Assembly (NCBI RefSeq): GCF_018398935.1
Contig: NZ_CP074694.1
Coordinates: 3,840,001-3,872,000 of the forward strand
DNA: 32,000 bases
Direction of reading: 5' to 3'
Origin: Telmatocola sphagniphila
GTDB taxonomy: Bacteria; Planctomycetota; Planctomycetia; Gemmatales; Gemmataceae
Part shown: piece after piece, positions 3,140 through 30,960 of the stretch
Position numbering within the stretch: the first letter of the stretch is position 1
Layout: the number at the start of each line of letters is the position of its first letter
Program-made: the position numbers and the translations under genes
The notes under the pieces: model-generated
Told to the model about the DNA's origin: nothing
The model's database searches: none
What the model saw: the letters and a program-made list of their open reading frames with translations, nothing else

Positions 3140-3304
3140 TGTCCTTTACCGCGGTTTGATCGCACTTTGGAATTCGAATCGCCGAATAGTTATTGAATTG
3201 CCAGTCGTCGATTACGCTGCGAATTTGGTAAGGGAATTGACCTGTTAAGTCGGTTTTTCCCCGCCGTCTTTGATCGGTGATAAATCGTACCTCGCTCCTA
3301 CCCC
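3140..3304 (+). mobile_element. 165-bp left-end fragment of the four-gene transposon, interrupted by copy 1
   Basis: Starts TGTCCTTTACCGCGGTTTGATCGCAC and matches the first ~165 bp of the element. It is the CGAATCGCC / CGATTACG variant also seen in copy 2. It is broken where the TGT of copy 1 begins at 3305. Confidence 0.85.
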
Positions 3305-3339
3305 TGTCCTTTACCGCGGTTTGATCGCACTTTGGAATT
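3305..3339 (+). repeat. left terminal inverted repeat (copy 1)
   Basis: TGTCCTTTACCGCGGTTTGATCGCACTTTGGAATT aligns with the reverse complement of the right end, TGTCCCGAACCGAATTCTGGTCGCATTTGTAGCCG. Shared positions follow TGTCC...ACCG...T.TG.TCGCA.TT. Confidence 0.75.
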
Positions 3340-3517
3340 AGAATAGCCGAATAGTTATTGAATTGCCAGTCGTCGCTTACGCTGCGAATTTGGTAAGGGA
3401 ATTGACTTGTTAAGTCGGTTTTTCCCCGCCGTCTTTGATCGGTGATAAATCGTACCTCGCTCTACCCCGCCTCGTGTCTGTACAATTTTCCTTTTCCATT
3501 TTGCTGAGGCTCACTCC

Positions 3518-4078
3518 TTGGGCGAGGTGCGGTTTTACCGCAGCGAGGAGGAATGGAGTTCGATCGCTGAACGGCTCAAACAGACCCACTGTCCGCACTG
3601 CAAAGTGGTCGGCACGCTGATTCAGCACGGCTTTTTGTTCGGCTATGACGAACGCAACCCCCAGCGAAGAGCCCGGCGTGCCCGGCGGATCTTCTGCAGC
3701 AATCGCAATTCCCGTCGCGGTTGCGGGCGGACTTTCAGCATCTGGCTCGCCGACAAAATCCGACGCTTGAGCCTTACCAGCAGCACTTTGTGGCGCTTCC
3801 TCCAACTCGCCGTATTTGGCAGTATCGCCGCATCAATCCGTGCCATCGACTGTCATCTGAGCGACCGAACCTTGCAGCGGATTTGGAAACGCTTCGATCT
3901 GAGCCAATGCCCGATTCGGACGGCCCTGTTGAATCAGCGTCCACCTCCAGAACTCGTAGTTGAACGCTCGCGTTGGCCGGCTCGGGCCCAAGTACTCGCC
4001 CATCTTCAAACCGCCTTTCCCGACGCCGATTGTCCGATCGCCGCCTTCCAACAGGCAATCCAGATTTTCTTCCTGTAA
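3518..4078 (+). CDS. transposon zinc-ribbon protein (186 aa), function unknown
   Basis: The ORF is conserved in every copy. It has a non-ATG start (TTG 3518 or GTG 3527) with GAGG upstream. The CPHC...x31...CSNRNSRRGCGRTFS motif followed by a helical region resembles the IS1595-type transposase Zn-ribbon layout by eye. Confidence 0.65.
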   Translation: MGEVRFYRSEEEWSSIAERLKQTHCPHCKVVGTLIQHGFLFGYDERNPQRRARRARRIFCSNRNSRRGCGRTFSIWLADKIRRLSLTSSTLWRFLQLAVFGSIAASIRAIDCHLSDRTLQRIWKRFDLSQCPIRTALLNQRPPPELVVERSRWPARAQVLAHLQTAFPDADCPIAAFQQAIQIFFL

Positions 4079-4311
4079 ATCTGACCCGATGCATAAAAGC
4101 CGATAACCGTTGACATATTTGCGTCGCATACACGTCGATTACCAACCCCGGTTACCCAATTCGGATCGCGCTACGTCGCCGCCGGCGCGCTCCCCAAATT
4201 CAAAAATAGCCGACAACGCATGATGTCGTAGTGACTCTCTTTGGTTTTTGATTCAATCTCCCGAGTCTGGCACCGCCCTGCCAGCACTTTCCCCAATCCG
4301 GAGAACTCTCC

Positions 4312-5553
4312 ATGAAGCAACCTTCGGTCTATTTGAAGATGCGGGTCCTCGGTGCTGTCGACACCGTCGAAGGGCGAACCCGGCATGAACGCGTTCACAA
4401 TGTCGCCGCCATGACCTTCCTCGACGAACAGGGCAACTCGCGTCAGTTCACCTGGCGGACCATTCAGACCTGGTTCTACCGTTACAAAAACCACGGCATC
4501 ACCGGTATGACTCCTCAGCCACGCAAGGACAAGGGACAAGTCCGCAAGGCCACGCCCGAGGAACTGCTCGAAGCCATTAACGCCGCCCAGCCCCACTTCC
4601 ACAACAAACGCTCCAACAAGCGAGCGATCTATCGCTTCTGTATCGAACGGGGGTTCCTGCAAGCCGACCGCATTGCTCAAACCACTTTTTACCGCTTCAT
4701 CCGAGAATACGATCTGCTCGCTCCCGTAGACAACGACAACAAGAAACGACTGGCCTTCAGCATGAAATTCGCCAACCAACTCTGGCAGGCGGACACCATG
4801 TTCGGACCATACGTGGACACCGGTACGTCCGCCGGCTCACGCAAGCAAGCCAAGCTCATCGCCTTCATCGACGACGCCAGCCGCGTCCTCTGCCACGGCG
4901 AATTCTTCTTCGAAGAAAACGTCGATACCCTCGTGCAGGCCATCCGGGCCGCCTTCTACAAACGCGGCGTCCCCGAACAACTGCTGGTCGACAACGGTTC
5001 CATCTATTGCTCCCAGGAGTTTACACTCATCTGTGCCCGCGTCGGCTGCCTCTTGCGACATACCGCTGTCCGGGATGCCGCCGCCAAGGGGAAGATCGAA
5101 CGCTTTTTCCGCCGCGTTCGCGACCAGTTCCTCTTGCAAAAACTCGACCTTTCTTCCCTTCAAGCCCTCAATCGCCAGTTCACTCTCTGGGTCGAAAGCG
5201 ACTACAACGCCAGCGAGCACGACGCCATCGGCATGAAACCGATCGACCGCTTCGGCATCGACTTGGCTCGCATTCGATTCTTGTCGCCTTCCGAACACAA
5301 CGACGAACTCTTCTTCGCCGAGGCCACCCGGAAAGTCAAAAAAGACAATACCTTTAGCTTCTGCAACCGACGTTACGAAACTCCCGTCGATCTGCACGAC
5401 AAACAAATCCAACTCCGCTACGACCGACAACGCGATGACATCGACATCTCCTCTACCACCGTCGTCATTTATTACAAAGGCCAACGCATGGGCACCGCTC
5501 GACTCCTGGATGCCGTTGCCAACGGGCTCCAACGCCGAAAGGAACAGCCATGA
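4312..5553 (+). CDS. DDE (rve/integrase-core) transposase, TniA/TnsB/MuA-like
   Basis: 413 aa with an N-terminal HTH-like region. The DDE triad context is LWQADTMFGPY, LLVDNGSIY, KGKIERFF. The stop overlaps the next gene's start (ATGA at 5550-5553). Confidence 0.9.
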   Translation: MKQPSVYLKMRVLGAVDTVEGRTRHERVHNVAAMTFLDEQGNSRQFTWRTIQTWFYRYKNHGITGMTPQPRKDKGQVRKATPEELLEAINAAQPHFHNKRSNKRAIYRFCIERGFLQADRIAQTTFYRFIREYDLLAPVDNDNKKRLAFSMKFANQLWQADTMFGPYVDTGTSAGSRKQAKLIAFIDDASRVLCHGEFFFEENVDTLVQAIRAAFYKRGVPEQLLVDNGSIYCSQEFTLICARVGCLLRHTAVRDAAAKGKIERFFRRVRDQFLLQKLDLSSLQALNRQFTLWVESDYNASEHDAIGMKPIDRFGIDLARIRFLSPSEHNDELFFAEATRKVKKDNTFSFCNRRYETPVDLHDKQIQLRYDRQRDDIDISSTTVVIYYKGQRMGTARLLDAVANGLQRRKEQP

Positions 5554-6350
5554 TCCGCTCCTTCTTCGGACTCTCGCACAATCCCTTCGACGCACGCGAA
5601 TTCAAACTCCTGCCGCAGCAGCAAGAAATTCACGACACCCTCAAGGTCCATTGCCAGCAGGGTGGACTCTGCCTGGTTCTCGGCGTTCCCGGCACCGGCA
5701 AGAGCTTCATCAAGCAATCCCTTCAGCGGCTTCCCGAAAACCAGCACCTGGTCGCCACCGTGGGCCGCACCTTGCACACCTATACCAACTCCGTCAAAAT
5801 ACTCTGCGATGCCTTCCGCATCGACTTCGAAAGCTCTGCCTTCAAGTGCGAACGCCGACTCATCGAACAAGCCTTCAGCCTCAACCATGCGGGCAAGTCG
5901 GTCACCACCATTCTCGACGACGCTCACCTCATGGATATGGCCTGTCTGCGAAAGTTGCGGCTGCTCTTCGAAGACTTCCCCAAAAACCACAACCTCATCC
6001 TCATCGGCCAACCCAGCCTGCTCGCCAACCTCGACCTCGGCGTCAACCAGGACATCAAAAGCCGAGTCACTTACTCCGTCATCGCCAAACGGCTCGGACC
6101 CGATTTACTGCGCGACTTCCTTCTCCGGGAACTCGATCGCATCGGACTCGGCCACAATACTTTTACGCAACCCGCCGTCGATCTCATCGTCCGCGCCGCC
6201 GACGGCATCCTGCGTAAAGCCCGCAATCTCTGCGTCGGCTGCCTCATCGAAGCCGTTCGATCCGCCAATAAAACCGTGGACATCGACAACGTCAACCGCG
6301 TCCTCCTGCAACCCCACTGGCAAAAAGAATCCGACCTCGCCGATTACTGA
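5550..6350 (+). CDS. AAA+ ATPase, TniB/ExeA(AAA_22)-like transposition helper
   Basis: 266 aa with N-terminus FFGLSHNPF (ExeA/TniB style). Walker A is GVPGTGKS and Walker B is TTILDDAHLM. It is translationally coupled to the transposase gene. Confidence 0.85.
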   Translation: MIRSFFGLSHNPFDAREFKLLPQQQEIHDTLKVHCQQGGLCLVLGVPGTGKSFIKQSLQRLPENQHLVATVGRTLHTYTNSVKILCDAFRIDFESSAFKCERRLIEQAFSLNHAGKSVTTILDDAHLMDMACLRKLRLLFEDFPKNHNLILIGQPSLLANLDLGVNQDIKSRVTYSVIAKRLGPDLLRDFLLRELDRIGLGHNTFTQPAVDLIVRAADGILRKARNLCVGCLIEAVRSANKTVDIDNVNRVLLQPHWQKESDLADY

Positions 6351-6376
6351 TTCTCAGCGCCCCCGTCGGAGAAACG

Positions 6377-6682
6377 ATGATCCAACCCGATCTACTACGC
6401 CGCATTCGCAACGATTTGCCCATGCCCGTCACCATCGCCACGCTGGGAACCGATGGGCCACCTTCGAAAATGAGCGAAGGCTACTTCCGCTTCCTCTGCC
6501 CCAACTGCGGCGAAATGCGGGCTACCGTCAACCCACGCAACAACCTCGCCCACTGCTTCGACTGCCAAAAAAACTTCAACAACATCGACCTCTTGCTCAC
6601 CCTCGATTACGACTTCCTCACCGCCGTCGATTTACTCGAACGCTGGCTCAACGAATATCGAACCCGACAAGCCAAAAAGTAA
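6377..6682 (+). CDS. small CHC2 (DnaG-primase-type) zinc-finger protein
   Basis: 101 aa. CPNCGEMRATVNPRNNLAHCFDCQKNFNNIDLLL parallels the DnaG zinc-binding motif CPFHxEKTPSFxV...HCFGCGxxGNxIDFLM. Confidence 0.7.
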   Translation: MIQPDLLRRIRNDLPMPVTIATLGTDGPPSKMSEGYFRFLCPNCGEMRATVNPRNNLAHCFDCQKNFNNIDLLLTLDYDFLTAVDLLERWLNEYRTRQAKK

Positions 6683-6861
6683 TCAGTCGCAGGAAGCCCG
6701 TTACTCTACGAACCTCTGCTGCTCGCGGCGAACGGCAGCGCCTCGTGCCGGACTACGCCGGCCCATCGCAACACCCCGGTCTCGGTCATCAGACCGCTCC
6801 AATATTCCCCGGTATTCGGCAAAACACCCTTCAAAATGCCAAAATCCCTACAGCTTTAATT

Positions 6862-6896
6862 CGGCTACAAATGCGACCAGAATTCGGTTCGGGACA
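6862..6896 (+). repeat. right terminal inverted repeat (copy 1)
   Basis: CGGCTACAAATGCGACCAGAATTCGGTTCGGGACA. The subterminal ATTCGG motif recurs at 6824, 6859 and 6882. Confidence 0.75.
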
Positions 6897-6897
6897 C

Positions 6898-7629
6898 CTG
6901 ATTCGGACGGGCCCGCTCGAAGGACCGCACCTTGTCCGGATGCCCTCGCGTCGGAGCCTGCTCCAGTTGATAACCGGCTTCATGCAGCACCCGGGCCACC
7001 GCCGAAGCACTCGCCGGTAAAGCCGGACCTCGCAATAGCATGTCGCTAATCCGCTGACACCCCCATTCCGGATTCGATTTTTTGAGCATCAGGATTGTAC
7101 GCTTGGTCAACTCGTGAACGCGGCTGCCCGGAGGTTTGCCCCGCGGCTGATCCAACAATCCGGCCGGGCCAGAAATTTCAAACCGCTTCTTCCATGCGTA
7201 AAGCGTGTGTTTCGAGACGCCTACCAAAGGAGCAAAATCGCCGGCGGGCAAGCCGCTCCGCTGCCAGGTATCCAGCAACAAAATCCGCTGTTCCGCCGTC
7301 ATCGCCGGCACGGGTTCGGTCGATTTTTTCACCAAACGCCGTCCCTTAACAGGTCCCCGACCCGATAACCTCGAGTGGAATTCCCTACGCTTCGAAAGGC
7401 TGGCTTCTACCTCGGAATCCACGGAATCCGATAAATCCAGACCCGCATCGGGAAAGGACTCCGAAGTGGGGCGGGCTCCGCGTCGCTCCCCTTCGCTGCG
7501 CTCAGGGGCGCTCGGCTCCGCCCGCCCCACTTCGGCAGCCGCGGACTGCGGGTCCCTATCCTCCGTCGGACCAGCTCTCGGTTGTTCTTCTCTTTTCTCC
7601 GCAAATGCATTCTGGTTGAATTCATCCAT
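6898..7629 (-). pseudogene. IS481-like transposase, N-terminal half (split gene, part 1)
   Basis: Minus-strand ORF with HTH regions (HTLYAWKKRFEISGPAGLLDQPRG..., NPEWGCQRISDMLL). It ends ...SFERARPNQ exactly at the ACA terminus of copy 1. It continues at 12466 on the other strand. Confidence 0.8.
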
Positions 7630-8368: not shown

Positions 8369-8866
8369 ATGATTGCTGCTCTCGATGTACACTACGATGA
8401 GGTTACAGCATCCGCTTTTGCGGCCGCAGTCGTATTCCAAACCTGGAAAGATGAGAAGCCTCTTCGAGAATACACTGTTCGCTGCAGTGACATTGCTGAA
8501 TACATCCCGGGGCAGTTTTTTCAAAGGGAATTGCCGTGTCTAAATGCTATTCTATCCCTTGTCGAAGAGCCAATAGATATTGTCGTAATCGACGGTTATG
8601 TTTCGCTCGGCGATAAGCCTGGATTAGGAATGTATCTCTGGGAATCCTTGCAGAAGAATAAGGTGGTCGTTGGAGTAGCAAAAACTCGGTATCATTCTGC
8701 ATCTGCGATTGAACTATCTCGAGGGGGGAGCAAATCGCCACTGTTCGTGACTGCGGTTGGAATGGAAGCAACGGATGCAGCGGCCAAGATCGCCTCCATG
8801 GCTGGGCAGCACCGCTTTCCGATTCTATTAAAAAGAGTCGATCGATTAGCTAGAGAGGTAAGCTAG
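8369..8866 (+). CDS. endonuclease V-like protein (short, 165 aa)
   Basis: The EndoV pattern is preserved in order: ALDVHY, YIPGQFFQRELP, VVIDGYVSLGDKPGLGMYLW, VVGVAKTRY, PLFVTAVGM, HRFPILLKRVDRLA. The transposon terminus starts 1 nt after the stop codon. Confidence 0.6.
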   Translation: MIAALDVHYDEVTASAFAAAVVFQTWKDEKPLREYTVRCSDIAEYIPGQFFQRELPCLNAILSLVEEPIDIVVIDGYVSLGDKPGLGMYLWESLQKNKVVVGVAKTRYHSASAIELSRGGSKSPLFVTAVGMEATDAAAKIASMAGQHRFPILLKRVDRLAREVS

Positions 8867-9081
8867 ATGTCCCGAACCGAATTCTGGTCGCATTTGTAGC
8901 CGAATTAAAGCTGTAGGGATTTTGGCATTTTGAAGGGTGTTTTGCCGAATTCCAGGGAATTTTGGAGCGGTCTGATGACCGAGACCGGGGTGTTGCGATG
9001 GGCCGGCGTAGTCCGGCACGAGGCGCTGCCGTTCGCCGCGAGCAGCAGAGGTTCGTAGAGGAACGGGCTTCCTGCGACTGA

Positions 9082-9387
9082 TTACTTTTTGGCTTGTCGG
9101 GTTCGATATTCGTTGAGCCAGCGTTCGAGTAAATCGACGGCGGTGAGGAAGTCGTAATCGAGGGTGAGCAAGAGGTCGATGTTGTTGAAGTTTTTTTGGC
9201 AGTCGAAGCAGTGGGCGAGGTTGTTGCGTGGGTTGACGGTAGCCCGCATTTCGCCGCAGTTGGGGCAGAGGAAGCGGAAGTAGCCTTCGCTCATTTTCGA
9301 AGGTGGCCCATCGGTTCCCAGCGTGGCGATGGTGACGGGCATGGGCAAATCGTTGCGAATGCGGCGTAGTAGATCGGGTTGGATCAT
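9082..9387 (-). CDS. CHC2 zinc-finger protein (copy 2)
   Basis: Translation identical to 6377-6682. Confidence 0.7.
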   Translation of the reverse strand: MIQPDLLRRIRNDLPMPVTIATLGTDGPPSKMSEGYFRFLCPNCGEMRATVNPRNNLAHCFDCQKNFNNIDLLLTLDYDFLTAVDLLERWLNEYRTRQAKK

Positions 9388-9413
9388 CGTTTCTCCGACG
9401 GGGGCGCTGAGAA

Positions 9414-10214
9414 TCAGTAATCGGCGAGGTCGGATTCTTTTTGCCAGTGGGGTTGCAGGAGGACGCGGTTGACGTTGTCGATGTCCACGGTTTTATTGGC
9501 GGATCGAACGGCTTCGATGAGGCAGCCGACGCAGAGATTGCGGGCTTTACGCAGGATGCCGTCGGCGGCGCGGACGATGAGATCGACGGCGGGTTGCGTA
9601 AAAGTATTGTGGCCGAGTCCGATGCGATCGAGTTCCCGGAGAAGGAAGTCGCGCAGTAAATCGGGTCCGAGCCGTTTGGCGATGACGGAGTAAGTGACTC
9701 GGCTTTTGATGTCCTGGTTGACGCCGAGGTCGAGGTTGGCGAGCAGGCTGGGTTGGCCGATGAGGATGAGGTTGTGGTTTTTGGGGAAGTCTTCGAAGAG
9801 CAGCCGCAACTTTCGCAGACAGGCCATATCCATGAGGTGAGCGTCGTCGAGAATGGTGGTGACCGACTTGCCCGCATGGTTGAGGCTGAAGGCTTGTTCG
9901 ATGAGTCGGCGTTCGCACTTGAAGGCAGAGCTTTCGAAGTCGATGCGGAAGGCATCGCAGAGTATTTTGACGGAGTTGGTATAGGTGTGCAAGGTGCGGC
10001 CCACGGTGGCGACCAGGTGCTGGTTTTCGGGAAGCCGCTGAAGGGATTGCTTGATGAAGCTCTTGCCGGTGCCGGGAACGCCGAGAACCAGGCAGAGTCC
10101 ACCCTGCTGGCAATGGACCTTGAGGGTGTCGTGAATTTCTTGCTGCTGCGGCAGGAGTTTGAATTCGCGTGCGTCGAAGGGATTGTGCGAGAGTCCGAAG
10201 AAGGAGCGGATCAT
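9414..10214 (-). CDS. TniB/ExeA-like AAA+ ATPase (copy 2)
   Basis: Translation identical to 5550-6350. Confidence 0.85.
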   Translation of the reverse strand: MIRSFFGLSHNPFDAREFKLLPQQQEIHDTLKVHCQQGGLCLVLGVPGTGKSFIKQSLQRLPENQHLVATVGRTLHTYTNSVKILCDAFRIDFESSAFKCERRLIEQAFSLNHAGKSVTTILDDAHLMDMACLRKLRLLFEDFPKNHNLILIGQPSLLANLDLGVNQDIKSRVTYSVIAKRLGPDLLRDFLLRELDRIGLGHNTFTQPAVDLIVRAADGILRKARNLCVGCLIEAVRSANKTVDIDNVNRVLLQPHWQKESDLADY

Positions 10215-11452
10215 GGCTGTTCCTTTCGGCGTTGGAGCCCGTTGGCAACGGCATCCAGGAGTCGAGCGGTGCCCATGCGTTGGCCTTTGTAATAAATGAC
10301 GACGGTGGTAGAGGAGATGTCGATGTCATCGCGTTGTCGGTCGTAGCGGAGTTGGATTTGTTTGTCGTGCAGATCGACGGGAGTTTCGTAACGTCGGTTG
10401 CAGAAGCTAAAGGTATTGTCTTTTTTGACTTTCCGGGTGGCCTCGGCGAAGAAGAGTTCGTCGTTGTGTTCGGAAGGCGACAAGAATCGAATGCGAGCCA
10501 AGTCGATGCCGAAGCGGTCGATCGGTTTCATGCCGATGGCGTCGTGCTCGCTGGCGTTGTAGTCGCTTTCGACCCAGAGAGTGAACTGGCGATTGAGGGC
10601 TTGAAGGGAAGAAAGGTCGAGTTTTTGCAAGAGGAACTGGTCGCGAACGCGGCGGAAAAAGCGTTCGATCTTCCCCTTGGCGGCGGCATCCCGGACAGCG
10701 GTATGTCGCAAGAGGCAGCCGACGCGGGCACAGATGAGTGTAAACTCCTGGGAGCAATAGATGGAACCGTTGTCGACCAGCAGTTGTTCGGGGACGCCGC
10801 GTTTGTAGAAGGCGGCCCGGATGGCCTGCACGAGGGTATCGACGTTTTCTTCGAAGAAGAATTCGCCGTGGCAGAGGACGCGGCTGGCGTCGTCGATGAA
10901 GGCGATGAGCTTGGCTTGCTTGCGTGAGCCGGCGGACGTACCGGTGTCCACGTATGGTCCGAACATGGTGTCCGCCTGCCAGAGTTGGTTGGCGAATTTC
11001 ATGCTGAAGGCCAGTCGTTTCTTGTTGTCGTTGTCTACGGGAGCGAGCAGATCGTATTCTCGGATGAAGCGGTAAAAAGTGGTTTGAGCAATGCGGTCGG
11101 CTTGCAGGAACCCCCGTTCGATACAGAAGCGATAGATCGCTCGCTTGTTGGAGCGTTTGTTGTGGAAGTGGGGCTGGGCGGCGTTAATGGCTTCGAGCAG
11201 TTCCTCGGGCGTGGCCTTGCGGACTTGTCCCTTGTCCTTGCGTGGCTGAGGAGTCATACCGGTGATGCCGTGGTTTTTGTAACGGTAGAACCAGGTCTGA
11301 ATGGTCCGCCAGGTGAACTGACGCGAGTTGCCCTGTTCGTCGAGGAAGGTCATGGCGGCGACATTGTGAACGCGTTCATGCCGGGTTCGCCCTTCGACGG
11401 TGTCGACAGCACCGAGGACCCGCATCTTCAAATAGACCGAAGGTTGCTTCAT
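10211..11452 (-). CDS. DDE (rve) transposase (copy 2)
   Basis: Translation identical to 4312-5553. Confidence 0.9.
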   Translation of the reverse strand: MKQPSVYLKMRVLGAVDTVEGRTRHERVHNVAAMTFLDEQGNSRQFTWRTIQTWFYRYKNHGITGMTPQPRKDKGQVRKATPEELLEAINAAQPHFHNKRSNKRAIYRFCIERGFLQADRIAQTTFYRFIREYDLLAPVDNDNKKRLAFSMKFANQLWQADTMFGPYVDTGTSAGSRKQAKLIAFIDDASRVLCHGEFFFEENVDTLVQAIRAAFYKRGVPEQLLVDNGSIYCSQEFTLICARVGCLLRHTAVRDAAAKGKIERFFRRVRDQFLLQKLDLSSLQALNRQFTLWVESDYNASEHDAIGMKPIDRFGIDLARIRFLSPSEHNDELFFAEATRKVKKDNTFSFCNRRYETPVDLHDKQIQLRYDRQRDDIDISSTTVVIYYKGQRMGTARLLDAVANGLQRRKEQP

Positions 11453-11685
11453 GGAGAGTTCTCCGGATTGGGGAAAGTGCTGGCAGGGCGGTGCCAGACT
11501 CGGGAGATTGAATCAAAAACCAAAGAGAGTCACTACGACATCATGCGTTGTCGGCTATTTTTGAATTTGGGGAGCGCGCCGGCGGCGACGTAGCGCGATC
11601 CGAATTGGGTAACCGGGGTTGGTAATCGACGTGTATGCGACGCAAATATGTCAACGGTTATCGGCTTTTATGCATCGGGTCAGAT

Positions 11686-12246
11686 TTACAGGAAGAAAAT
11701 CTGGATTGCCTGTTGGAAGGCGGCGATCGGACAATCGGCGTCGGGAAAGGCGGTTTGAAGATGGGCGAGTACTTGGGCCCGAGCCGGCCAACGCGAGCGT
11801 TCAACTACGAGTTCTGGAGGTGGACGCTGATTCAACAGGGCCGTCCGAATCGGGCATTGGCTCAGATCGAAGCGTTTCCAAATCCGCTGCAAGGTTCGGT
11901 CGCTCAGATGACAGTCGATGGCACGGATTGATGCGGCGATACTGCCAAATACGGCGAGTTGGAGGAAGCGCCACAAAGTGCTGCTGGTAAGGCTCAAGCG
12001 TCGGATTTTGTCGGCGAGCCAGATGCTGAAAGTCCGCCCGCAACCCCGACGGGAATTGCGATTGCTGCAGAAGATCCGCCGGGCACGCCGGGCTCTTCGC
12101 TGGGGGTTGCGTTCGTCATAGCCGAACAAAGAGCCGTGCTGAATCAGCGTGCCGACCACTTTGCAGTGCGGACAGTGGGTCTGTTTGAGCCGTTCAGCGA
12201 TCGAACTCCATTCCTCCTCGCTGCGGTAAAACCGCACCTCGCCCAA
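11686..12246 (-). CDS. transposon zinc-ribbon protein (copy 2)
   Basis: Same as 3518-4078 except for one substitution (HGFLFGY to HGSLFGY). Confidence 0.65.
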   Translation of the reverse strand: MGEVRFYRSEEEWSSIAERLKQTHCPHCKVVGTLIQHGSLFGYDERNPQRRARRARRIFCSNRNSRRGCGRTFSIWLADKIRRLSLTSSTLWRFLQLAVFGSIAASIRAIDCHLSDRTLQRIWKRFDLSQCPIRTALLNQRPPPELVVERSRWPARAQVLAHLQTAFPDADCPIAAFQQAIQIFFL

Positions 12247-12465
12247 GGAGTGAGCCTCAGCAAAATGGAAAAGGAAAATTGTACAGACACGAGGCGGGGT
12301 AGAGCGAGGTACGATTTATCACCGATCAAAGACGGCGGGGAAAAACCGACTTAACATTAACAAGTCAATTCCCTTACCAAATTCGCAGCGTAATCGACGA
12401 CTGGCAATTCAATAACTATTCGGCGATTCGAATTCCAAAGTGCGATCAAACCGCGGTAAAGGACA

Positions 12466-13133
12466 AATCAGTTATGGCAAACTGATCTTTTCACATTTGT
12501 GTTAAAACGTCAGAATCGGCGCGTTCATTTGGTCGGGTTCATGGACGATCACAGTCGGTTTTTGGTCGGCTACGGCTTGCATGCGAGCCAGTCATCGGCT
12601 TTGGTGCTGGAGGTCTTGCGAGCTTCCATGGCTTCTTATGGAACGCCGGAGGAGATTCTCACCGACAACGGTACGCAGTATGTGACCTGGCGGGGTAAAA
12701 GTGCCTTCTCGAAGGAACTCGAAAAACGGGGCATTCGACAGGTAGTAGCGTCTCCGCGTCATCCGCAGACTTTGGGTAAGATCGAGCGGTTCTGGGGAAC
12801 CTTGTGGCGTGAGTGCATCGAGAGTGCAATCTTCATCGACATGGGGGATGCTCAGCGTCGGATTGGGTTATTCATAGACCATTACAACTTCCAGAGGCCC
12901 CATCAGGGGATCGATGGTCTGGTGCCCGCGGACCGTTACTTCGGGGCGGCCTCGGAAGTGCGTCGGAGTCTTCAAACTCGGGTAGCCGCGAATGCCTTGG
13001 AGCTGGCTCGAAACGGGATTCCGAAGCAGCCGTTTTATCTGACCGGCCAGGTGGGAGGTCAGCCCTTCAGCGTCCATGCGGAAGGGGAACGGATGATCTT
13101 GACCCGGCCCGAAGGAGAACGGCGGGAGATAGA
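12466..13133 (+). pseudogene. IS481-like transposase, catalytic C-terminal part (split gene, part 2)
   Basis: The frame starts NQLWQTDLFTFVLKRQNRRVHLVGFMDDHSRF... directly at the copy 2 left terminus. rve motifs are present (ILTDNGTQY, LGKIERFW, YNFQRPHQGI). The 3' end is cut by the TGT terminus at 13134. Confidence 0.8.
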
Positions 13134-13564
13134 TGTCCTTTACCGCGGTTTGATCGCACTTTGGAATTAGAATAGCCGAATAGTTATTGAATTGCCAGTC
13201 GTCGCTTACGCTGCGAATTTGGTAAGGGAATTGACCTGTTAAGTCGGTTTTTCCCCGCCGTCTTTGATCGGTGATAAATCGTACCTCGCTCTACCCCGCC
13301 TCGTGTCTGTACAATTTTCCTTTTCCATTTTGCTGAGGCTCACTCCTTGGGTGTCCTTTACCGCGGTTTGATCGCACTTTGGAATTAGAATAGCCGAATA
13401 GTTATTGAATTGCCAGTCGTCGCTTACGCTGCGAATTTGGTAAGGGAATTGACTTGTTAAGTCGGTTTTTCCCCGCCGTCTTTGATCGGTGATAAATCGT
13501 ACCTCGCTCTACCCCGCCTCGTGTCTGTACAATTTTCCTTTTCCATTTTGCTGAGGCTCACTCC

Positions 13565-14125
13565 TTGGGCGAGGTGCGGTTTTACCGCAGCGAGGAGGAA
13601 TGGAGTTCGATCGCTGAACGGCTCAAACAGACCCACTGTCCGCACTGCAAAGTGGTCGGCACGCTGATTCAGCACGGCTTTTTGTTCGGCTATGACGAAC
13701 GCAACCCCCAGCGAAGAGCCCGGCGTGCCCGGCGGATCTTCTGCAGCAATCGCAATTCCCGTCGCGGTTGCGGGCGGACTTTCAGCATCTGGCTCGCCGA
13801 CAAAATCCGACGCTTGAGCCTTACCAGCAGCACTTTGTGGCGCTTCCTCCAACTCGCCGTATTTGGCAGTATCGCCGCATCAATCCGTGCCATCGACTGT
13901 CATCTGAGCGACCGAACCTTGCAGCGGATTTGGAAACGCTTCGATCTGAGCCAATGCCCGATTCGGACGGCCCTGTTGAATCAGCGTCCACCTCCAGAAC
14001 TCGTAGTTGAACGCTCGCGTTGGCCGGCTCGGGCCCAAGTACTCGCCCATCTTCAAACCGCCTTTCCCGACGCCGATTGTCCGATCGCCGCCTTCCAACA
14101 GGCAATCCAGATTTTCTTCCTGTAA
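13565..14125 (+). CDS. transposon zinc-ribbon protein (copy 3)
   Basis: Translation identical to 3518-4078. Confidence 0.65.
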   Translation: MGEVRFYRSEEEWSSIAERLKQTHCPHCKVVGTLIQHGFLFGYDERNPQRRARRARRIFCSNRNSRRGCGRTFSIWLADKIRRLSLTSSTLWRFLQLAVFGSIAASIRAIDCHLSDRTLQRIWKRFDLSQCPIRTALLNQRPPPELVVERSRWPARAQVLAHLQTAFPDADCPIAAFQQAIQIFFL

Positions 14126-14358
14126 ATCTGACCCGATGCATAAAAGCCGATAACCGTTGACATATTTGCGTCGCATACACGTCGATTACCAACCCCGGTT
14201 ACCCAATTCGGATCGCGCTACGTCGCCGCCGGCGCGCTCCCCAAATTCAAAAATAGCCGACAACGCATGATGTCGTAGTGACTCTCTTTGGTTTTTGATT
14301 CAATCTCCCGAGTCTGGCACCGCCCTGCCAGCACTTTCCCCAATCCGGAGAACTCTCC

Positions 14359-15600
14359 ATGAAGCAACCTTCGGTCTATTTGAAGATGCGGGTCCTCGGT
14401 GCTGTCGACACCGTCGAAGGGCGAACCCGGCATGAACGCGTTCACAATGTCGCCGCCATGACCTTCCTCGACGAACAGGGCAACTCGCGTCAGTTCACCT
14501 GGCGGACCATTCAGACCTGGTTCTACCGTTACAAAAACCACGGCATCACCGGTATGACTCCTCAGCCACGCAAGGACAAGGGACAAGTCCGCAAGGCCAC
14601 GCCCGAGGAACTGCTCGAAGCCATTAACGCCGCCCAGCCCCACTTCCACAACAAACGCTCCAACAAGCGAGCGATCTATCGCTTCTGTATCGAACGGGGG
14701 TTCCTGCAAGCCGACCGCATTGCTCAAACCACTTTTTACCGCTTCATCCGAGAATACGATCTGCTCGCTCCCGTAGACAACGACAACAAGAAACGACTGG
14801 CCTTCAGCATGAAATTCGCCAACCAACTCTGGCAGGCGGACACCATGTTCGGACCATACGTGGACACCGGTACGTCCGCCGGCTCACGCAAGCAAGCCAA
14901 GCTCATCGCCTTCATCGACGACGCCAGCCGCGTCCTCTGCCACGGCGAATTCTTCTTCGAAGAAAACGTCGATACCCTCGTGCAGGCCATCCGGGCCGCC
15001 TTCTACAAACGCGGCGTCCCCGAACAACTGCTGGTCGACAACGGTTCCATCTATTGCTCCCAGGAGTTTACACTCATCTGTGCCCGCGTCGGCTGCCTCT
15101 TGCGACATACCGCTGTCCGGGATGCCGCCGCCAAGGGGAAGATCGAACGCTTTTTCCGCCGCGTTCGCGACCAGTTCCTCTTGCAAAAACTCGACCTTTC
15201 TTCCCTTCAAGCCCTCAATCGCCAGTTCACTCTCTGGGTCGAAAGCGACTACAACGCCAGCGAGCACGACGCCATCGGCATGAAACCGATCGACCGCTTC
15301 GGCATCGACTTGGCTCGCATTCGATTCTTGTCGCCTTCCGAACACAACGACGAACTCTTCTTCGCCGAGGCCACCCGGAAAGTCAAAAAAGACAATACCT
15401 TTAGCTTCTGCAACCGACGTTACGAAACTCCCGTCGATCTGCACGACAAACAAATCCAACTCCGCTACGACCGACAACGCGATGACATCGACATCTCCTC
15501 TACCACCGTCGTCATTTATTACAAAGGCCAACGCATGGGCACCGCTCGACTCCTGGATGCCGTTGCCAACGGGCTCCAACGCCGAAAGGAACAGCCATGA
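14359..15600 (+). CDS. DDE (rve) transposase (copy 3)
   Basis: Translation identical to 4312-5553. Confidence 0.9.
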   Translation: MKQPSVYLKMRVLGAVDTVEGRTRHERVHNVAAMTFLDEQGNSRQFTWRTIQTWFYRYKNHGITGMTPQPRKDKGQVRKATPEELLEAINAAQPHFHNKRSNKRAIYRFCIERGFLQADRIAQTTFYRFIREYDLLAPVDNDNKKRLAFSMKFANQLWQADTMFGPYVDTGTSAGSRKQAKLIAFIDDASRVLCHGEFFFEENVDTLVQAIRAAFYKRGVPEQLLVDNGSIYCSQEFTLICARVGCLLRHTAVRDAAAKGKIERFFRRVRDQFLLQKLDLSSLQALNRQFTLWVESDYNASEHDAIGMKPIDRFGIDLARIRFLSPSEHNDELFFAEATRKVKKDNTFSFCNRRYETPVDLHDKQIQLRYDRQRDDIDISSTTVVIYYKGQRMGTARLLDAVANGLQRRKEQP

Positions 15601-16397
15601 TCCGCTCCTTCTTCGGACTCTCGCACAATCCCTTCGACGCACGCGAATTCAAACTCCTGCCGCAGCAGCAAGAAATTCACGACACCCTCAAGGTCCATTG
15701 CCAGCAGGGTGGACTCTGCCTGGTTCTCGGCGTTCCCGGCACCGGCAAGAGCTTCATCAAGCAATCCCTTCAGCGGCTTCCCGAAAACCAGCACCTGGTC
15801 GCCACCGTGGGCCGCACCTTGCACACCTATACCAACTCCGTCAAAATACTCTGCGATGCCTTCCGCATCGACTTCGAAAGCTCTGCCTTCAAGTGCGAAC
15901 GCCGACTCATCGAACAAGCCTTCAGCCTCAACCATGCGGGCAAGTCGGTCACCACCATTCTCGACGACGCTCACCTCATGGATATGGCCTGTCTGCGAAA
16001 GTTGCGGCTGCTCTTCGAAGACTTCCCCAAAAACCACAACCTCATCCTCATCGGCCAACCCAGCCTGCTCGCCAACCTCGACCTCGGCGTCAACCAGGAC
16101 ATCAAAAGCCGAGTCACTTACTCCGTCATCGCCAAACGGCTCGGACCCGATTTACTGCGCGACTTCCTTCTCCGGGAACTCGATCGCATCGGACTCGGCC
16201 ACAATACTTTTACGCAACCCGCCGTCGATCTCATCGTCCGCGCCGCCGACGGCATCCTGCGTAAAGCCCGCAATCTCTGCGTCGGCTGCCTCATCGAAGC
16301 CGTTCGATCCGCCAATAAAACCGTGGACATCGACAACGTCAACCGCGTCCTCCTGCAACCCCACTGGCAAAAAGAATCCGACCTCGCCGATTACTGA
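15597..16397 (+). CDS. TniB/ExeA-like AAA+ ATPase (copy 3)
   Basis: Translation identical to 5550-6350. Confidence 0.85.
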   Translation: MIRSFFGLSHNPFDAREFKLLPQQQEIHDTLKVHCQQGGLCLVLGVPGTGKSFIKQSLQRLPENQHLVATVGRTLHTYTNSVKILCDAFRIDFESSAFKCERRLIEQAFSLNHAGKSVTTILDDAHLMDMACLRKLRLLFEDFPKNHNLILIGQPSLLANLDLGVNQDIKSRVTYSVIAKRLGPDLLRDFLLRELDRIGLGHNTFTQPAVDLIVRAADGILRKARNLCVGCLIEAVRSANKTVDIDNVNRVLLQPHWQKESDLADY

Positions 16398-16423
16398 TTC
16401 TCAGCGCCCCCGTCGGAGAAACG

Positions 16424-16729
16424 ATGATCCAACCCGATCTACTACGCCGCATTCGCAACGATTTGCCCATGCCCGTCACCATCGCCACGCTGGGAACCGA
16501 TGGGCCACCTTCGAAAATGAGCGAAGGCTACTTCCGCTTCCTCTGCCCCAACTGCGGCGAAATGCGGGCTACCGTCAACCCACGCAACAACCTCGCCCAC
16601 TGCTTCGACTGCCAAAAAAACTTCAACAACATCGACCTCTTGCTCACCCTCGATTACGACTTCCTCACCGCCGTCGATTTACTCGAACGCTGGCTCAACG
16701 AATATCGAACCCGACAAGCCAAAAAGTAA
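16424..16729 (+). CDS. CHC2 zinc-finger protein (copy 3)
   Basis: Translation identical to 6377-6682. Confidence 0.7.
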   Translation: MIQPDLLRRIRNDLPMPVTIATLGTDGPPSKMSEGYFRFLCPNCGEMRATVNPRNNLAHCFDCQKNFNNIDLLLTLDYDFLTAVDLLERWLNEYRTRQAKK

Positions 16730-16944
16730 TCAGTCGCAGGAAGCCCGTTACTCTACGAACCTCTGCTGCTCGCGGCGAACGGCAGCGCCTCGTGCCGGAC
16801 TACGCCGGCCCATCGCAACACCCCGGTCTCGGTCATCAGACCGCTCCAATATTCCCCGGTATTCGGCAAAACACCCTTCAAAATGCCAAAATCCCTACAG
16901 CTTTAATTCGGCTACAAATGCGACCAGAATTCGGTTCGGGACAC

Positions 16945-17505
16945 TTGGGCGAGGTGCGGTTTTACCGCAGCGAGGAGGAATGGAGTTCGATCGCTGAACG
17001 GCTCAAACAGACCCACTGTCCGCACTGCAAAGTGGTCGGCACGCTGATTCAGCACGGCTTTTTGTTCGGCTATGACGAACGCAACCCCCAGCGAAGAGCC
17101 CGGCGTGCCCGGCGGATCTTCTGCAGCAATCGCAATTCCCGTCGCGGTTGCGGGCGGACTTTCAGCATCTGGCTCGCCGACAAAATCCGACGCTTGAGCC
17201 TTACCAGCAGCACTTTGTGGCGCTTCCTCCAACTCGCCGTATTTGGCAGTATCGCCGCATCAATCCGTGCCATCGACTGTCATCTGAGCGACCGAACCTT
17301 GCAGCGGATTTGGAAACGCTTCGATCTGAGCCAATGCCCGATTCGGACGGCCCTGTTGAATCAGCGTCCACCTCCAGAACTCGTAGTTGAACGCTCGCGT
17401 TGGCCGGCTCGGGCCCAAGTACTCGCCCATCTTCAAACCGCCTTTCCCGACGCCGATTGTCCGATCGCCGCCTTCCAACAGGCAATCCAGATTTTCTTCC
17501 TATAA
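16945..17505 (+). CDS. transposon zinc-ribbon protein (host copy 4)
   Basis: Same 186-aa sequence. Its TTG start lies inside the duplicated CTTGGG immediately after the copy 3 right terminus. Confidence 0.55.
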   Translation: MGEVRFYRSEEEWSSIAERLKQTHCPHCKVVGTLIQHGFLFGYDERNPQRRARRARRIFCSNRNSRRGCGRTFSIWLADKIRRLSLTSSTLWRFLQLAVFGSIAASIRAIDCHLSDRTLQRIWKRFDLSQCPIRTALLNQRPPPELVVERSRWPARAQVLAHLQTAFPDADCPIAAFQQAIQIFFL

Positions 17506-17738
17506 ATCTGACCCGATGCATAAAAGCCGATAACCGTTGACATATTTGCGTCGCATACACGTCGATTACCAACCCCGGTTACCCAATTCGGATCGCGCTA
17601 CGTCGCCGCCGGCGCGTTCCCCAAATTCAAAAATAGCCGACAACGCATGATGTCGTAGTGACTCTCTTTGGTTTTTGATTCAATCTCCCGAGTCTGGCAC
17701 CGCCATGCCAGCACTTTCCCCAATCCGGAGAACTCTCC

Positions 17739-18157
17739 ATGAAGCAACCTTCGGTCTATTTGAAGATGCGGGTCCTCGGTGCTGTCGACACCGTCGAAGG
17801 GCGAACCCGGCATGAACGCGTTCACAATGTGGCCGCCATGACCTTCCTCGACGAACAGGGCAACTCGCGTCAGTTCACCTGGCGGACCATTCAGACCTGG
17901 TTCTACCGTTACAAAAACCACGGCATCACCGGTATGACTCCTCAGCCACGCAAGGACAAGGGACAAGTCCGCAAGGCCACGCCCGAGGAACTGCTCGAAG
18001 CCATTAACGCCGCCCAGCCCCACTTCCACAACAAACGCTCCAACAAGCGAGCGATCTATCGCTTCTGTATCGAACGGGGGTTCCTGCAAGCCGACCGCAT
18101 TGCTCAAACCACTTTTTACCGCTTCATCCGAGAATACGATCTGCTCGCTCCCGTAGA
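17739..18157 (+). pseudogene. DDE transposase, 5' fragment (host copy 4)
   Basis: The first ~139 codons are identical to the 413-aa transposase. The fragment is broken at ...LLAPVD by the TGT terminus of the mini-element. Confidence 0.85.
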
Positions 18158-18679
18158 TGTCCTTTACCGCGGTTTGATCGCACTTAGGAATTAGAATAGC
18201 CGAATAGTTATTGAATTGCCAGTCGTCGCTTACGCTGCGAATTTGGTAAAGGAATTGACTTGTTAAGTCGGTTTTTCCCCGCCGTCTTTGATCGGTGATA
18301 AAACGTACCTCGCTCCTACCCCGCCTCGGGTCTGTACAATTTTCCTTTTCCATTTTGCTGAGGCTTACTCCTTGGGCGAGGTGCGGTTTTACCGCAGCGA
18401 GGAGGAATGGAGTTCGATCGCTGAACGGCTCAAACAGACCCACTGTCCGCACTGCAAAGTGGTCGGCACGCTGATTCAGCACGGCTTTTTGTTCGGCTAT
18501 GACGAACGCAACCCCCAGAGCCTCGTGCCGGACTACACCGGCCCATCGCAACACCCCGGTCTCGGTCATCAGACTGCTCAAAAAATTCCCTGGAATTCGG
18601 CAAAAACACCCTTCAAAATGCAAAAAATCCATACAGCTTTAATTCGGCTACAAATGCGACCAGAATTCGGTTCGGGACA
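18158..18679 (+). mobile_element. 522-bp internally deleted (MITE-like) derivative of the four-gene transposon
   Basis: An intact TGT left end plus ~361 bp is joined at 18518/18519 to the last ~161 bp, including the GGGACA terminus. It has no complete gene. It carries more substitutions than the full copies. Confidence 0.8.
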
Positions 18680-19110
18680 CCTCGCCCACTGCTTCGACTG
18701 CCAAAAAAACTTCAACAACATCGACCTCTTGCTCACCCTCGATTACGACTTCCTCACCGCCGTCGATTTACTCGAACGCTGGCTCAACGAATATCAAACC
18801 CGACAAGCCAAAAAGTAATTAGTCGCAGGAAGCCCGTTCCTCTACGAACCTCTGCTGTTCACGGCGAACGGCAGCACCTCGCGCCGGACTACGCCGGCCC
18901 ATCGCAACACCCCGGTCTCGGCCATCAGACCGCTCCAAAATTCCCTGGAATTCGGCAAAACACCCTTCAAAATGCCAAAATCCCTACAGCTTTAATTCGG
19001 CTACAAATGCGACCAGAATTCGGTTCGGGACATCTAAGCGGGATAGGGCGCTTTAGTTCGCGTCCATAGCGGTGTGCGACTGCGACTCTTTTCGAACGGA
19101 GAAATCCCTC

Positions 19111-20994: not shown

Positions 20995-21165
20995 ACGGAG
21001 AACGGCAGCGCCTCGTGCCGGACTACGCCGGCCCCTCGCAACACCCCGGTCTCGGTCATCAGGCCGCTCCAAAATTCCCCGGTATTCGGCAAAACACCCT
21101 TCAAAATACCAAAATCCCTACAGCTTTAATTCGGCTACAAATGCGACCAGAATTCGGTTCGGGAT
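20995..21165 (+). mobile_element. right-end fragment of the four-gene transposon with damaged tip
   Basis: Matches the last ~170 bp of the element (GAACGGCAGCGCCTCGTGCCGG...AATTCGGTTCGGGA). It ends GGGAT instead of GGGACA and is fused to internal ATPase-gene sequence. Confidence 0.75.
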
Positions 21166-21649
21166 AACAAGCCTTCAGCCTCAACCATGCGGGCAAGTCG
21201 GTCACCACCATTCTCGACGACGCTCACCTCATGGATATGGCCTGTCTGCGAAAGTTGCGGCTGCTCTTCGAAGACTTCCCCAAAAACCACAACCTCATCC
21301 TCATCGGCCAACCCAGCCTGCTCGCCAACCTCGACCTCGGCGTCAACCAGGACATCAAAAGCCGAGTCACTTACTCCGTCATCGCCAAACGGCTCGGACC
21401 CGATTTACTGCGCGACTTCCTTCTCCGGGAACTCGATCGCATCGGACTCGGCCACAATACTTTTACGCAACCCGCCGTCGATCTCATCGTCCGCGCCGCC
21501 GACGGCATCCTGCGTAAAGCCCGCAATCTCTGCGTCGGCTGCCTCATCGAAGCCGTTCGATCCGCCAATAAAACCGTGGACATCGACAACGTCAACCGCG
21601 TCCTCCTGCAACCCCACTGGCAAAAGAATCCGACCTCGCCGATTACTGA
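21166..21649 (+). pseudogene. TniB/ExeA-like ATPase, 3' fragment with frameshift
   Basis: Lacks the first ~105 codons including Walker A. A 1-bp deletion in the A-run near 21620 (CAAAAGAATCC versus CAAAAAGAATCC) shifts the frame. Confidence 0.8.
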
Positions 21650-21675
21650 TTCTCAGCGCCCCCGTCGGAGAAACG

Positions 21676-21981
21676 ATGATCCAACCCGATCTACTACGCC
21701 GCATTCGCAACGATTTGCCCATGCCCGTCACCATCGCCACGCTGGGAGCCGATGGGCCACCTTCGAAAATGAGCGAAGGTTACTTCCGCTTCCTCTGCCC
21801 CAACTGCGGCGAAATGCGGGCTACCGTCAACCCACGCAACAACCTCGCCCACTGCTTCGACTGCCAAAAAAACTTCAACAACATCGACCTCTTGCTCACC
21901 CTCGATTACGACTTCCTCACCGCCGTCGATTTACTCGAACGCTGGCTCAACGAATATCAAACCCGACAAGCCAAAAAGTAA
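21676..21981 (+). CDS. CHC2 zinc-finger protein (truncated copy; intact ORF with two substitutions)
   Basis: 101 codons, MIQPDLLRRIRNDL...EYQTRQAKK. It differs from copy 1 at T to A (LGADG) and R to Q. Confidence 0.5.
   Translation: MIQPDLLRRIRNDLPMPVTIATLGADGPPSKMSEGYFRFLCPNCGEMRATVNPRNNLAHCFDCQKNFNNIDLLLTLDYDFLTAVDLLERWLNEYQTRQAKK

Positions 21982-22860: not shown

Positions 22861-30960
<8,100 letters not shown>

Follow-up and report, generated by a model that had tools for sequence, protein, structure and literature searches.

The DNA analysed here, a stretch of 32,000 nucleotides from Telmatocola sphagniphila (contig NZ_CP074694.1, positions 3,840,001 to 3,872,000; hereafter the window), carries a transposon of 3,592 bp. 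A preliminary description of the window had reported it as a recurring unit with TGTCC...GGGACA termini, imperfect inverted repeats and four genes. Three full copies were found, with the inverted repeats matching at 19 of the first 28 bases without gaps. The four open reading frames (ORFs) lie where they had been placed, including the TTG (non-ATG) start of the first and the ATGA overlap between the second and the third, and all are intact in each of the three full copies. They encode, in order, a zinc-ribbon protein of 186 aa (gene 1), a DDE transposase (gene 2), an AAA+ ATPase (gene 3) and a primase-type zinc protein of 101 aa (gene 4). The element is considered likely to be an autonomous and recently active transposon of T. 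sphagniphila, belonging to a Planctomycetota-wide clade of a Tn6049-like (DUF6431-DDE-AAA_22) group and working in the manner proposed below.

The coordinates of the features are collected in Table 1. Copies 1 and 3, earlier noted for their identical translations and ends, were found to be identical at 3,592 of 3,592 positions by self-BLAST and base-by-base comparison. The differences of copy 2 all fall within the first 414 or the last 194 bases, corresponding to the end regions and gene 1. Beside the full copies, at least six fragments or nested pieces are present. The earlier proposal of recent transposition agrees with the identical copies, the target duplication and the insertions into other mobile elements.

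Table 1. Features of the element and of its copies in the window; positions marked E are element positions counted from 3305.
Feature	Positions	Strand	Description
Left-end fragment E1-164	3140..3304	+	Adjoins copy 1; remnant of a nested insertion
Full copy 1	3305..6896	+	3,592 bp; from self-BLAST, termini read
Left end	3305..3517	+	Terminal TGTCC..GATCGCA block E1-26; GCCGAAT site 3346-3352; inverted site GCGAATTTGGTAA at ~3383-3395
Gene 1	3518..4078	+	186 aa, TTG start; zinc-ribbon
Gene 2	4312..5553	+	413-aa DDE transposase; N-terminal helix-turn-helix (HTH), rve core, C-terminal Mu-transpos_C barrel
Gene 3	5550..6350	+	266-aa AAA+ ATPase (AAA_22); ATGA overlap with gene 2 at 5550-5553
Gene 4	6377..6682	+	101 aa, stand-alone; CPxC...HCFxC
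Right end	6683..6896	+	Three direct CCGAAT sites on the minus strand, 6882-6887, 6859-6864 and 6814-6819; terminal ...GGGACA
N-terminal (HTH) half of another insertion sequence (IS) transposase gene	6897..7629	-	From Pfam; adjoins right end of copy 1
Full copy 2, inverted	8868..12465	-	Nine substitutions and a 6-bp insertion relative to copy 1
Genes 1-4 of copy 2	11686-12246, 10211-11452, 9414-10214, 9082-9387	-	
C-terminal (rve core) half of the same other IS transposase gene	12466..13133	+	From Pfam; adjoins left end of copy 2
Older copy split by copy 3, first part E1-218	13134..13351	+	From self-BLAST
Full copy 3	13352..16943	+	Sits in another copy; 6-bp target duplication CTTGGG
Older copy split by copy 3, second part E213-1426	16944..18157	+	Cut at E1426 by the next insertion
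Internally deleted derivative, ~525 bp, geneless	18158..18682	+	Left end E1-360 joined to 167 bp of the right end
Right-end fragment ~E3239-3592	18679..19035	+	From self-BLAST
Right-end fragment	20996..21164	+	Followed by E2562-3592 at 21166-22200; co-oriented nested junction
RHS-repeat gene region	22861-30960 and 22452-22856	-	
Nested junctions	3140-3304/3305, 13351/13352, 18157/18158, 18682/18683, 21164/21166		

Of the two halves of another IS transposase gene, one adjoins the right end of copy 1 and the other the left end of copy 2. Joining 6897-7629 (minus strand) to the sequence from 12472 onward gives one continuous ORF (...RPNQ followed by LWQTD...) with a duplication, AATCAG, and one extra base. 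Since the split gene can be rejoined in this way, a single insertion followed by an inversion between the oppositely oriented copies 1 and 2 is concluded. The inversion could have been replicative or could have occurred by homologous recombination. The pattern of polymorphism would fit a scheme in which two variants recombined and the hybrid then transposed to form copy 3, and the replicative route to the inversion could be compatible with the same pattern. An endonuclease V (nfi) ORF at 8369-8866 (+) stops 2 bp short of the right end of copy 2; it spans only profile positions 19-145 of 198 and appears to have been truncated by the insertion or by a later rearrangement.

An origin of the copies as inactive remnants, multiplied by segmental duplication or by recombination and not by recent transposition, is very improbable and is already contradicted by copy 3, which lies inside another copy with a perfect 6-bp duplication. 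The dense mosaic of fragments in the region, the absence of target duplications at most copies and the rearrangement of copies 1 and 2 by inversion would agree with such an origin. Nevertheless, the junctions lie exactly at the termini, the ORFs are intact in three copies and two of these are identical over 3.6 kb. Short derivatives, geneless or internally deleted, recur in the window (18158-18682) and elsewhere (L013, L026 and L073), some of those in other genomes having gene 1 joined directly to gene 4. Such derivatives may be non-autonomous and moved in trans.

The end sites were located by a motif scan and then by alignment of the ends of 14 family members. In this alignment CCGAATT occurs three times as a direct site at the right end (positions 10, 33 and 78, counted from the tip). 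At the left end, the terminal TGT..GATCGCA block is accompanied by one GCCGAATT at position 42 and, near position 85, by an inverted GAATTYGGYAA. The asymmetric CCGAATT array is conserved across the 14 members. Mu, Tn7, Tn552 and Tn5053 typically have asymmetric ends with several sites (PMC8649781). Clean 6-bp target duplications were read in three independent cases, namely CTTGGG (copy 3), GCTTCC (L002) and GGTCCG (L004), and a palindromic target preference, N-Y-T-A-R-N with a central TA, was obtained from 81 distinct left and 77 distinct right flanks. In most of the copies examined in the Gemmataceae metagenome-assembled genome (MAG) MFD01716 (loci L014-L020, L022, L023, L035, L037, L041 and L046), a second right-end-like segment lies in tandem immediately internal to the true right end (element position ~3664); it is apparently an old nested event fixed in that lineage. 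Two metagenome contigs of ~3.7 kb were considered as candidate circular or tandem junctions and rejected, being whole elements collapsed by assembly without a right-end/left-end junction. No family was matched in an Rfam scan, no sigma-70-like promoter was found in a promoter scan, and terminator-like sites were not above shuffled controls.

The transposase matched rve, rve_3, Mu-transpos_C and an N-terminal HTH in Pfam, and D161, D227 and E263 were invariant in an alignment with distant relatives. The best NCBIfam model was that of IS481 (NF033577), with 157.5 bits against a cut-off of 224, followed at ~50-58 bits by the models for IS21 (58 bits; cut-off 160), IS3 (57 bits) and an ISNCY family. 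Judged from these scores, the catalytic core is closest to IS481. When a profile of the transposase family was compared with solved structures, the best match was TnsB of the CRISPR-associated transposon ShCAST (7svw; E = 9e-26), over almost the full length, followed by IstA of IS5376 (E = 4e-21) and then by other TnsB proteins and retroviral integrases. The protein is 100% identical to a T. sphagniphila protein. Among the 4,636 significant matches, the best 119 after it (P0002-P0120) are 85-88% identical and come from JGI, ENA and Logan metagenomes. The metagenome relatives lie mostly on contigs of the size of the element (~3.5-4 kb). Because the listed relatives are so similar and mostly occupy element-length contigs, the planctomycete clade is concluded to be abundant and unusually uniform in the environment.

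The ATPase was matched in Pfam by AAA_22 (ExeA-type) and by neither IstB_IS21 (PF01695) nor TniB, in line, as far as ExeA is concerned, with the earlier view that its N-terminus looks TniB/ExeA-like and not IstB-like. Walker A (G45-K51), Walker B (D123), R172 and R222 are invariant in the alignment. The family profile found MuB first in the PDB (8xvb; E = 4e-15), followed by TnsC of ShCAST (E = 3e-10) and then by Cdc6/ORC1 and VchTnsC; IstB was not among the 60 listed matches. The transposase and the ATPase are coupled by the ATGA overlap here and form a single fused ORF in Undibacterium.

The earlier placement of the element in the company of Mu, Tn7, Tn552 and Tn5053 holds in part, being right as regards mechanism: TnsB and MuB/TnsC are the best profile matches of the two proteins among solved structures. 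The catalytic core is closest to IS481, and the element would operate as a small system in the Mu/Tn7 manner upon an IS481-like core. The likeness to TnsB and TnsC appears to be a resemblance at the superfamily level only. By analogy, a transposase with a target-binding AAA+ activator would be expected to divide the labour as in Mu and Tn7. Mu (MuA/MuB) and the Tn7-like or type V-K CRISPR-associated transposons (CASTs) hold the best solved profile-level relatives of both proteins and share asymmetric multi-site ends, but they differ in having TnsA, TniQ or a CRISPR module, much longer proteins and a 5-bp duplication. As had been stated before, no TnsA or TniQ/TnsD domain was found in the four proteins with Pfam or NCBIfam. 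The same applies to a serine resolvase of the Tn552/Tn5053 type: none of the four proteins matched a recombinase domain, and the 3.6 kb leave no room for another ORF. Tn552 (p480, p271 and BinL) is similar in its DDE transposase with a Mu-type C-terminal domain, its ATP-binding partner, its TGT...ACA ends and its sub-terminal repeats. It is dissimilar in its resolvase and blaZ cargo and in lacking zinc-ribbon genes, and it is much more distant than the DUF6431-associated transposases, with staphylococcal p480-type proteins showing ~24% identity to the transposase (E = 1e-10 to 1e-13).

An ordinary IS21 element (IstA/IstB) with two non-conserved passenger ORFs was also considered, since the DDE and AAA+ pair forms the same kind of two-gene module and IstA of IS5376 is both the second-best profile match and the best single-sequence PDB match of the transposase (E = 5e-4). 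The score of the IS21 model, far under its cut-off, the lack of an IstB_IS21 match, the absence of IstB from the listed structures and an ATPase that is not IstB/DnaC-like contradict this reading. Moreover, both additional ORFs are conserved and under purifying selection, so an IS21 assignment is scarcely credible. By the defining features of these families the element is not IS21, Tn7 or Tn552, and it lies below the IS481 score cut-off.

The claim that two different zinc proteins accompany the pair was borne out, and both were found to be real, conserved genes. Gene 1 has 1,161 homologues, which carry neither a name nor a Pfam domain. Their alignment shows the motif CPHC..HG..C-SNRxxRxGCGRT to be wholly or almost invariant, with invariant zinc ligands. 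The homologues begin at the same position with ATG or GTG, which supports the TTG start. No Pfam match was obtained for gene 1 at E <= 0.1, so that it lies below the gathering score of DUF6431 (PF20020), and no relative of solved structure was found by sequence in the PDB, TniQ included. When the 186-aa family was compared with three DUF6431 proteins by hhalign, a probability of 88% was obtained (E = 3e-6, 103 columns), and the alignment paired CPHC...HG...C..C.RT.S, comprising both zinc knuckles, and the helix that follows. Gene 1 also occupies the same slot upstream of the transposase as the DUF6431 genes of relatives. It is regarded, on this profile similarity, as a putative remote relative of DUF6431. 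For the exact 186-aa sequence the only record comes from a Logan short-read assembly, with none in NCBI; gene 1, with its TTG start, has apparently been overlooked in the deposited annotation. In a related genome, gene callers gave an antisense ORF of 142 aa at the position of gene 1 (L001-L003, 5231-5659).

Gene 4 has 2,023 homologues, and its CPxC...HCFxC zinc ligands are invariant in the alignment. The AlphaFold model (predicted local distance difference test, pLDDT, of 75) gave as best fold match in the PDB the zinc-binding domain of Bacillus DnaG primase (1d0q; probability 1.0, TM score 0.56, 97 columns), and the protein is accordingly predicted from the model to have this fold. The Pfam CHC2 (PF01807) score was 18.4, under the cut-off of 24.9, and one homologue (P0249) carries a precomputed CHC2 match. 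No significant sequence match of gene 4 to TniQ or to any solved structure was obtained. Among the best 150 of 631 representatives, no large multidomain fusion of the primase-type zinc domain, whether with a primase or with a transposase, was found, all being of 57-302 aa. Identity across the clade is 62-88%. A primase-type zinc protein occupies the fourth slot only in the planctomycete clade and in a distant sister lineage at L053. At that locus (4029-5625, minus strand), the ATPase is 25% identical and is followed by a primase-type zinc protein of 41% identity; the present element has inserted into this distant lineage and interrupts it. At L001 (204-1583, plus strand), a 459-aa IS3-like transposase bears precomputed Pfam matches to rve, rve_3 and Zn_ribbon_DnaG, which hints that other planctomycete transposases have also recruited primase-type zinc ribbons.

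A survey of related genomes for conserved synteny, which the preliminary description had proposed, showed that the four-gene unit recurs and is not a product of chance. A scan with the 186-aa protein alignment, using one genome per species, yielded 77 loci, nearly all in Planctomycetota (Gemmatales, Pirellulales and Planctomycetales), with a few from MAGs labelled Verrucomicrobiales, Acidobacteriota, Gammaproteobacteria, Deltaproteobacteria and Myxococcota. The synteny table, built by tblastn, showed the order gene 1, transposase, ATPase and gene 4 to be kept in more than 25 other genomes, at dozens of loci, with identities down to 43%, 68%, 69% and 62%, respectively. Multiple copies, internally deleted derivatives and nested arrays occur in many genomes. 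The ratio of nonsynonymous to synonymous substitution rates (dN/dS), estimated against two relatives ~80% identical in DNA, was 0.16-0.23 for gene 1, 0.12-0.14 for the transposase, 0.09-0.16 for the ATPase and 0.15-0.23 for gene 4. By these ratios and by their conservation, all four ORFs are real genes under purifying selection.

A wider group was found by searching annotated plasmids with the transposase and the ATPase. The nearest of the elements recovered, on the Undibacterium plasmid pUKW01 (L005), has a transposase 48% and an ATPase 41% identical, both fused in one ORF. This continuous ORF of 687 aa (3992-6052), annotated as 'ATP-binding protein', may be a natural fusion or a sequencing frameshift. 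The same architecture was found in Pandoraea (L083), Alicyclobacillus (L085) and Streptomyces (L086), on Geobacillus pGeo12a (L084), where the transposase is annotated by PGAP (the Prokaryotic Genome Annotation Pipeline) as 'IS481 family transposase' with 255 bits, above the 224 cut-off, and in Cupriavidus metallidurans, where it is that of Tn6049 (L087). Such elements also occur in Bacillota, Actinomycetota and Betaproteobacteria. Among these plasmid relatives other than Tn6049, transposase identities range from 30 to 48% and ATPase identities from 23 to 41%, and the two genes overlap or are fused. The upstream gene of ~180 aa is DUF6431 in L083-L086, and the first ORFs of L005 and L087 gave no Pfam match. 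In all clades examined, from four phyla, the transposase-ATPase pair comes with a DUF6431-type protein or, at the equivalent position, a Cys-rich ORF. The plasmid elements resemble the window element in gene order and protein sizes and differ in the fourth gene, which is DUF5348, a Tn6049-like helical ORF (as in L005), another small ORF or none, and in no case a primase-type zinc protein.

The preliminary description had recognised no named family with this architecture. This did not hold, as both the gene order and the TGT...ACA ends recur in Tn6049. Tn6049 is an element of 3.5 kb, present in 12 copies in strain CH34 and noted for its ATPase gene gspA (PMC2864759), and locus L087 carries its published inverted repeats (PMC4739549), TGTGCATAAGCA and TGCTCACGCACA. 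Its ORFs lie on the same strand and in the same order as those of the window element, with a Cys-rich protein of ~180 aa, an IS481-type DDE transposase, an AAA_22 protein ('GspA') and a small ORF; the length of 3.5 kb and the multiple copies are also shared. The two transposases align over 388 residues, including the C-terminal barrel, with 24% identity (BLASTP E = 9e-25), and the ATPases over the N-terminal half only, with 25% identity (E = 2e-7). As a named counterpart with the same genes and ends, Tn6049 matches only in part: ORF1 gave a hhalign probability of 45% against DUF6431 proteins and no support against the 186-aa family; ORF4 is a helical protein of 71 aa, unrelated in fold and sequence to the primase-type zinc protein; and the ends form a 12-bp inverted repeat of a sequence unlike that of the window element. 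The target duplication of Tn6049 was reported as 4 bp (PMC4739549), and a 5-bp duplication (TATGG) was read at the copy in L087. Tn6049 is the only named member found of the group. The window element shares the DUF6431-DDE-AAA_22 architecture of this Tn6049-like group and represents in it a distant, Planctomycetota-wide clade with a fourth gene and ends of its own. New in this clade are the primase-type fourth gene, the conserved asymmetric CCGAATT end arrays and the two biases of orientation described below. Large laboratory deletions in CH34 were described as removing regions 'except Tn6049' (PMC13192273); the retention of Tn6049 at the deletion borders is as expected of transposon-mediated adjacent deletions or of recombination between copies.

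The following mechanism is proposed. The transposase would bind, through its N-terminal HTH, the asymmetric CCGAATT array, that is, the three direct sites of the right end and the terminal block, the direct site and the inverted site of the left end. It would then pair the ends, expose the terminal CA-3'OH and join it to the target with a 6-bp stagger, preferring N-Y-T-A-R-N. The coupled AAA+ ATPase would act in a MuB/TnsC-like manner, as an ATP-dependent binder of target DNA that recruits and activates the transposase; these two roles are suggested by the kinship with TnsB/MuA and MuB/TnsC. The 186-aa zinc-ribbon protein, being present in every relative examined, would most likely be a third core component, acting as a DNA-binding adaptor or regulator. 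The 101-aa protein would probably be a clade-specific accessory factor, because the fourth slot is variable. Since there is neither a TnsA-like nuclease nor a resolvase, we infer that transposition would be either replicative with host-mediated resolution or of the copy-out/paste-in type. The latter has been proposed for IS3 and IS481.

Another possibility is what is in essence an IS481-type insertion sequence with a helper ATPase, in which the two zinc proteins would stand outside the transposition machinery and regulate it, for instance as a repressor or by controlling copy number. IS481 is the best family model for the transposase, and the element shares with IS481 the TGT...ACA ends and a 6-bp duplication with a central TA. 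The target of IS481 is NCTAGN, which N-Y-T-A-R-N resembles. Gene 1 lies 233 bp from the transposase gene, relatives carry HTH domains typical of regulators, and the fourth slot holds unrelated small proteins by clade, or none. IS481 members, for which 6-bp duplications have been described (PMC10045372), are however single-gene elements of ~1-1.3 kb, in contrast with the 3,592 bp and four conserved genes found here, and the window transposase differs in its Mu-transpos_C barrel and in the ATPase and two further conserved genes alongside. The constant company of a DUF6431-type or Cys-rich ORF in all clades examined, from four phyla, the invariant zinc ligands of gene 1 and the conservation of gene 4 across the clade argue against this reading, and the possibility is held to be rather doubtful, though not a negligible one.

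Several observations weigh against the proposed transposon of the Tn6049-like group and its mechanism. The transposase remains below the IS481 cut-off, and its single-sequence PDB matches are weak. For gene 1, neither Pfam nor the PDB gave a match and the AlphaFold model is of low quality (pLDDT 53), so the role given to it is a guess. Gene 4 is missing from the closest relatives outside the planctomycetes (L005, L077 and L079, the transposase of the last two being 57% identical), from which it follows that it is dispensable for the basic reaction. Target duplications are missing at most copies, which needs later recombination or intramolecular events; one such case, inside the window, is explained by the inversion between copies 1 and 2. 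Target immunity of the Mu/Tn7 style is not evident, since nesting is frequent. Finally, in the literature on the group no experimental work on any member was found, the reports on Tn6049 being confined to naming and copy counts.

The insertions show two biases of orientation. In the window, a 2,699-aa RHS-repeat gene lies on the opposite strand, and the cluster of copies ends ~650 bp beyond its 3' end. When loci L001-L082 were searched with three Rhs queries within 6 kb, Rhs-like DNA was found near 34 of the 82, and its strand was opposite to that of the element genes in 33 of these 34 (25 genomes against 1). A terminus directly adjoins YD-repeat coding sequence in at least 12 loci. L004 is a clean insertion in the core-end motif PVNHTDPSGL. 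The second bias concerns nested junctions, read in the window and in L011, L024, L030, L031, L040, L041 and L044, which are co-oriented in 46 cases against 4, or in ~23 against 4 once the inherited right-end duplication and paired junctions are removed. The target motif, being symmetric, cannot set the orientation of insertion. A bias with replication direction was considered and rejected: the oriented GC skew of the flanks is negative in 45 of 62 loci, but the signal disappeared after splitting by ORF strand and pooling per genome (7 against 7; Wilcoxon p 0.95). The orientation of flanking ORFs outside the Rhs loci is unbiased.

These biases invite the explanation of a targeted system of the Tn7/CAST kind, in which a zinc protein would serve as a TniQ/TnsD-type selector loading the TnsC-like ATPase, with insertion in one orientation and Rhs as the candidate target. 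The antiparallel Rhs loci with their adjoining termini, the co-oriented nesting, the asymmetric multi-site ends and the TnsB and TnsC/MuB relatives would all suit it. Such targeting is nonetheless judged distinctly unlikely. TnsA and TniQ domains were not found, the duplication is of 6 bp and not 5, the local target motif is short and palindromic, and 48 of the 82 loci have no Rhs nearby. Breakpoints at Rhs are scattered through the core and over 0.8-2.7 kb past its end; since the position relative to Rhs is variable, this is not an attachment site of the Tn7 type, which lies at a fixed position. The 3' regions of Rhs genes are, in addition, classical sinks for insertion sequences (H-rpt in the Rhs elements of E. 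coli), and the enrichment may come from retention rather than targeting. For the antiparallel bias, the candidate explanations are selection against read-through from Rhs promoters and transcription-linked targeting.

Mu, Tn7, the CASTs and IS21 are the best-understood models of controlled target choice and the basis of programmable insertion tools. The family described here is compact and abundant in metagenomes, combining an IS481-like core with a MuB/TnsC-like ATPase of 266 aa and a conserved zinc-ribbon partner, and the group to which it belongs, which spans at least four phyla, is widespread and nearly uncharacterised. An evidently active member with mapped ends, a target preference and conserved site arrays offers a tractable starting point. 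It is conceivable, although on balance unlikely, that the DUF6431/Tn6049-type elements constitute a distinct class of AAA+-regulated DDE transposons bridging the IS481-type and Mu/Tn7 elements, with the zinc-ribbon protein as an obligatory third subunit and the planctomycete primase-type protein serving in target sensing and orientation-specific insertion; if true, this would explain both the antiparallel bias at Rhs and the co-oriented nesting. The antiparallel relation to Rhs genes, if mechanistic, would represent a new kind of control over target and orientation, and, if it arises from selection, would be informative on how such elements survive in dense genomes.

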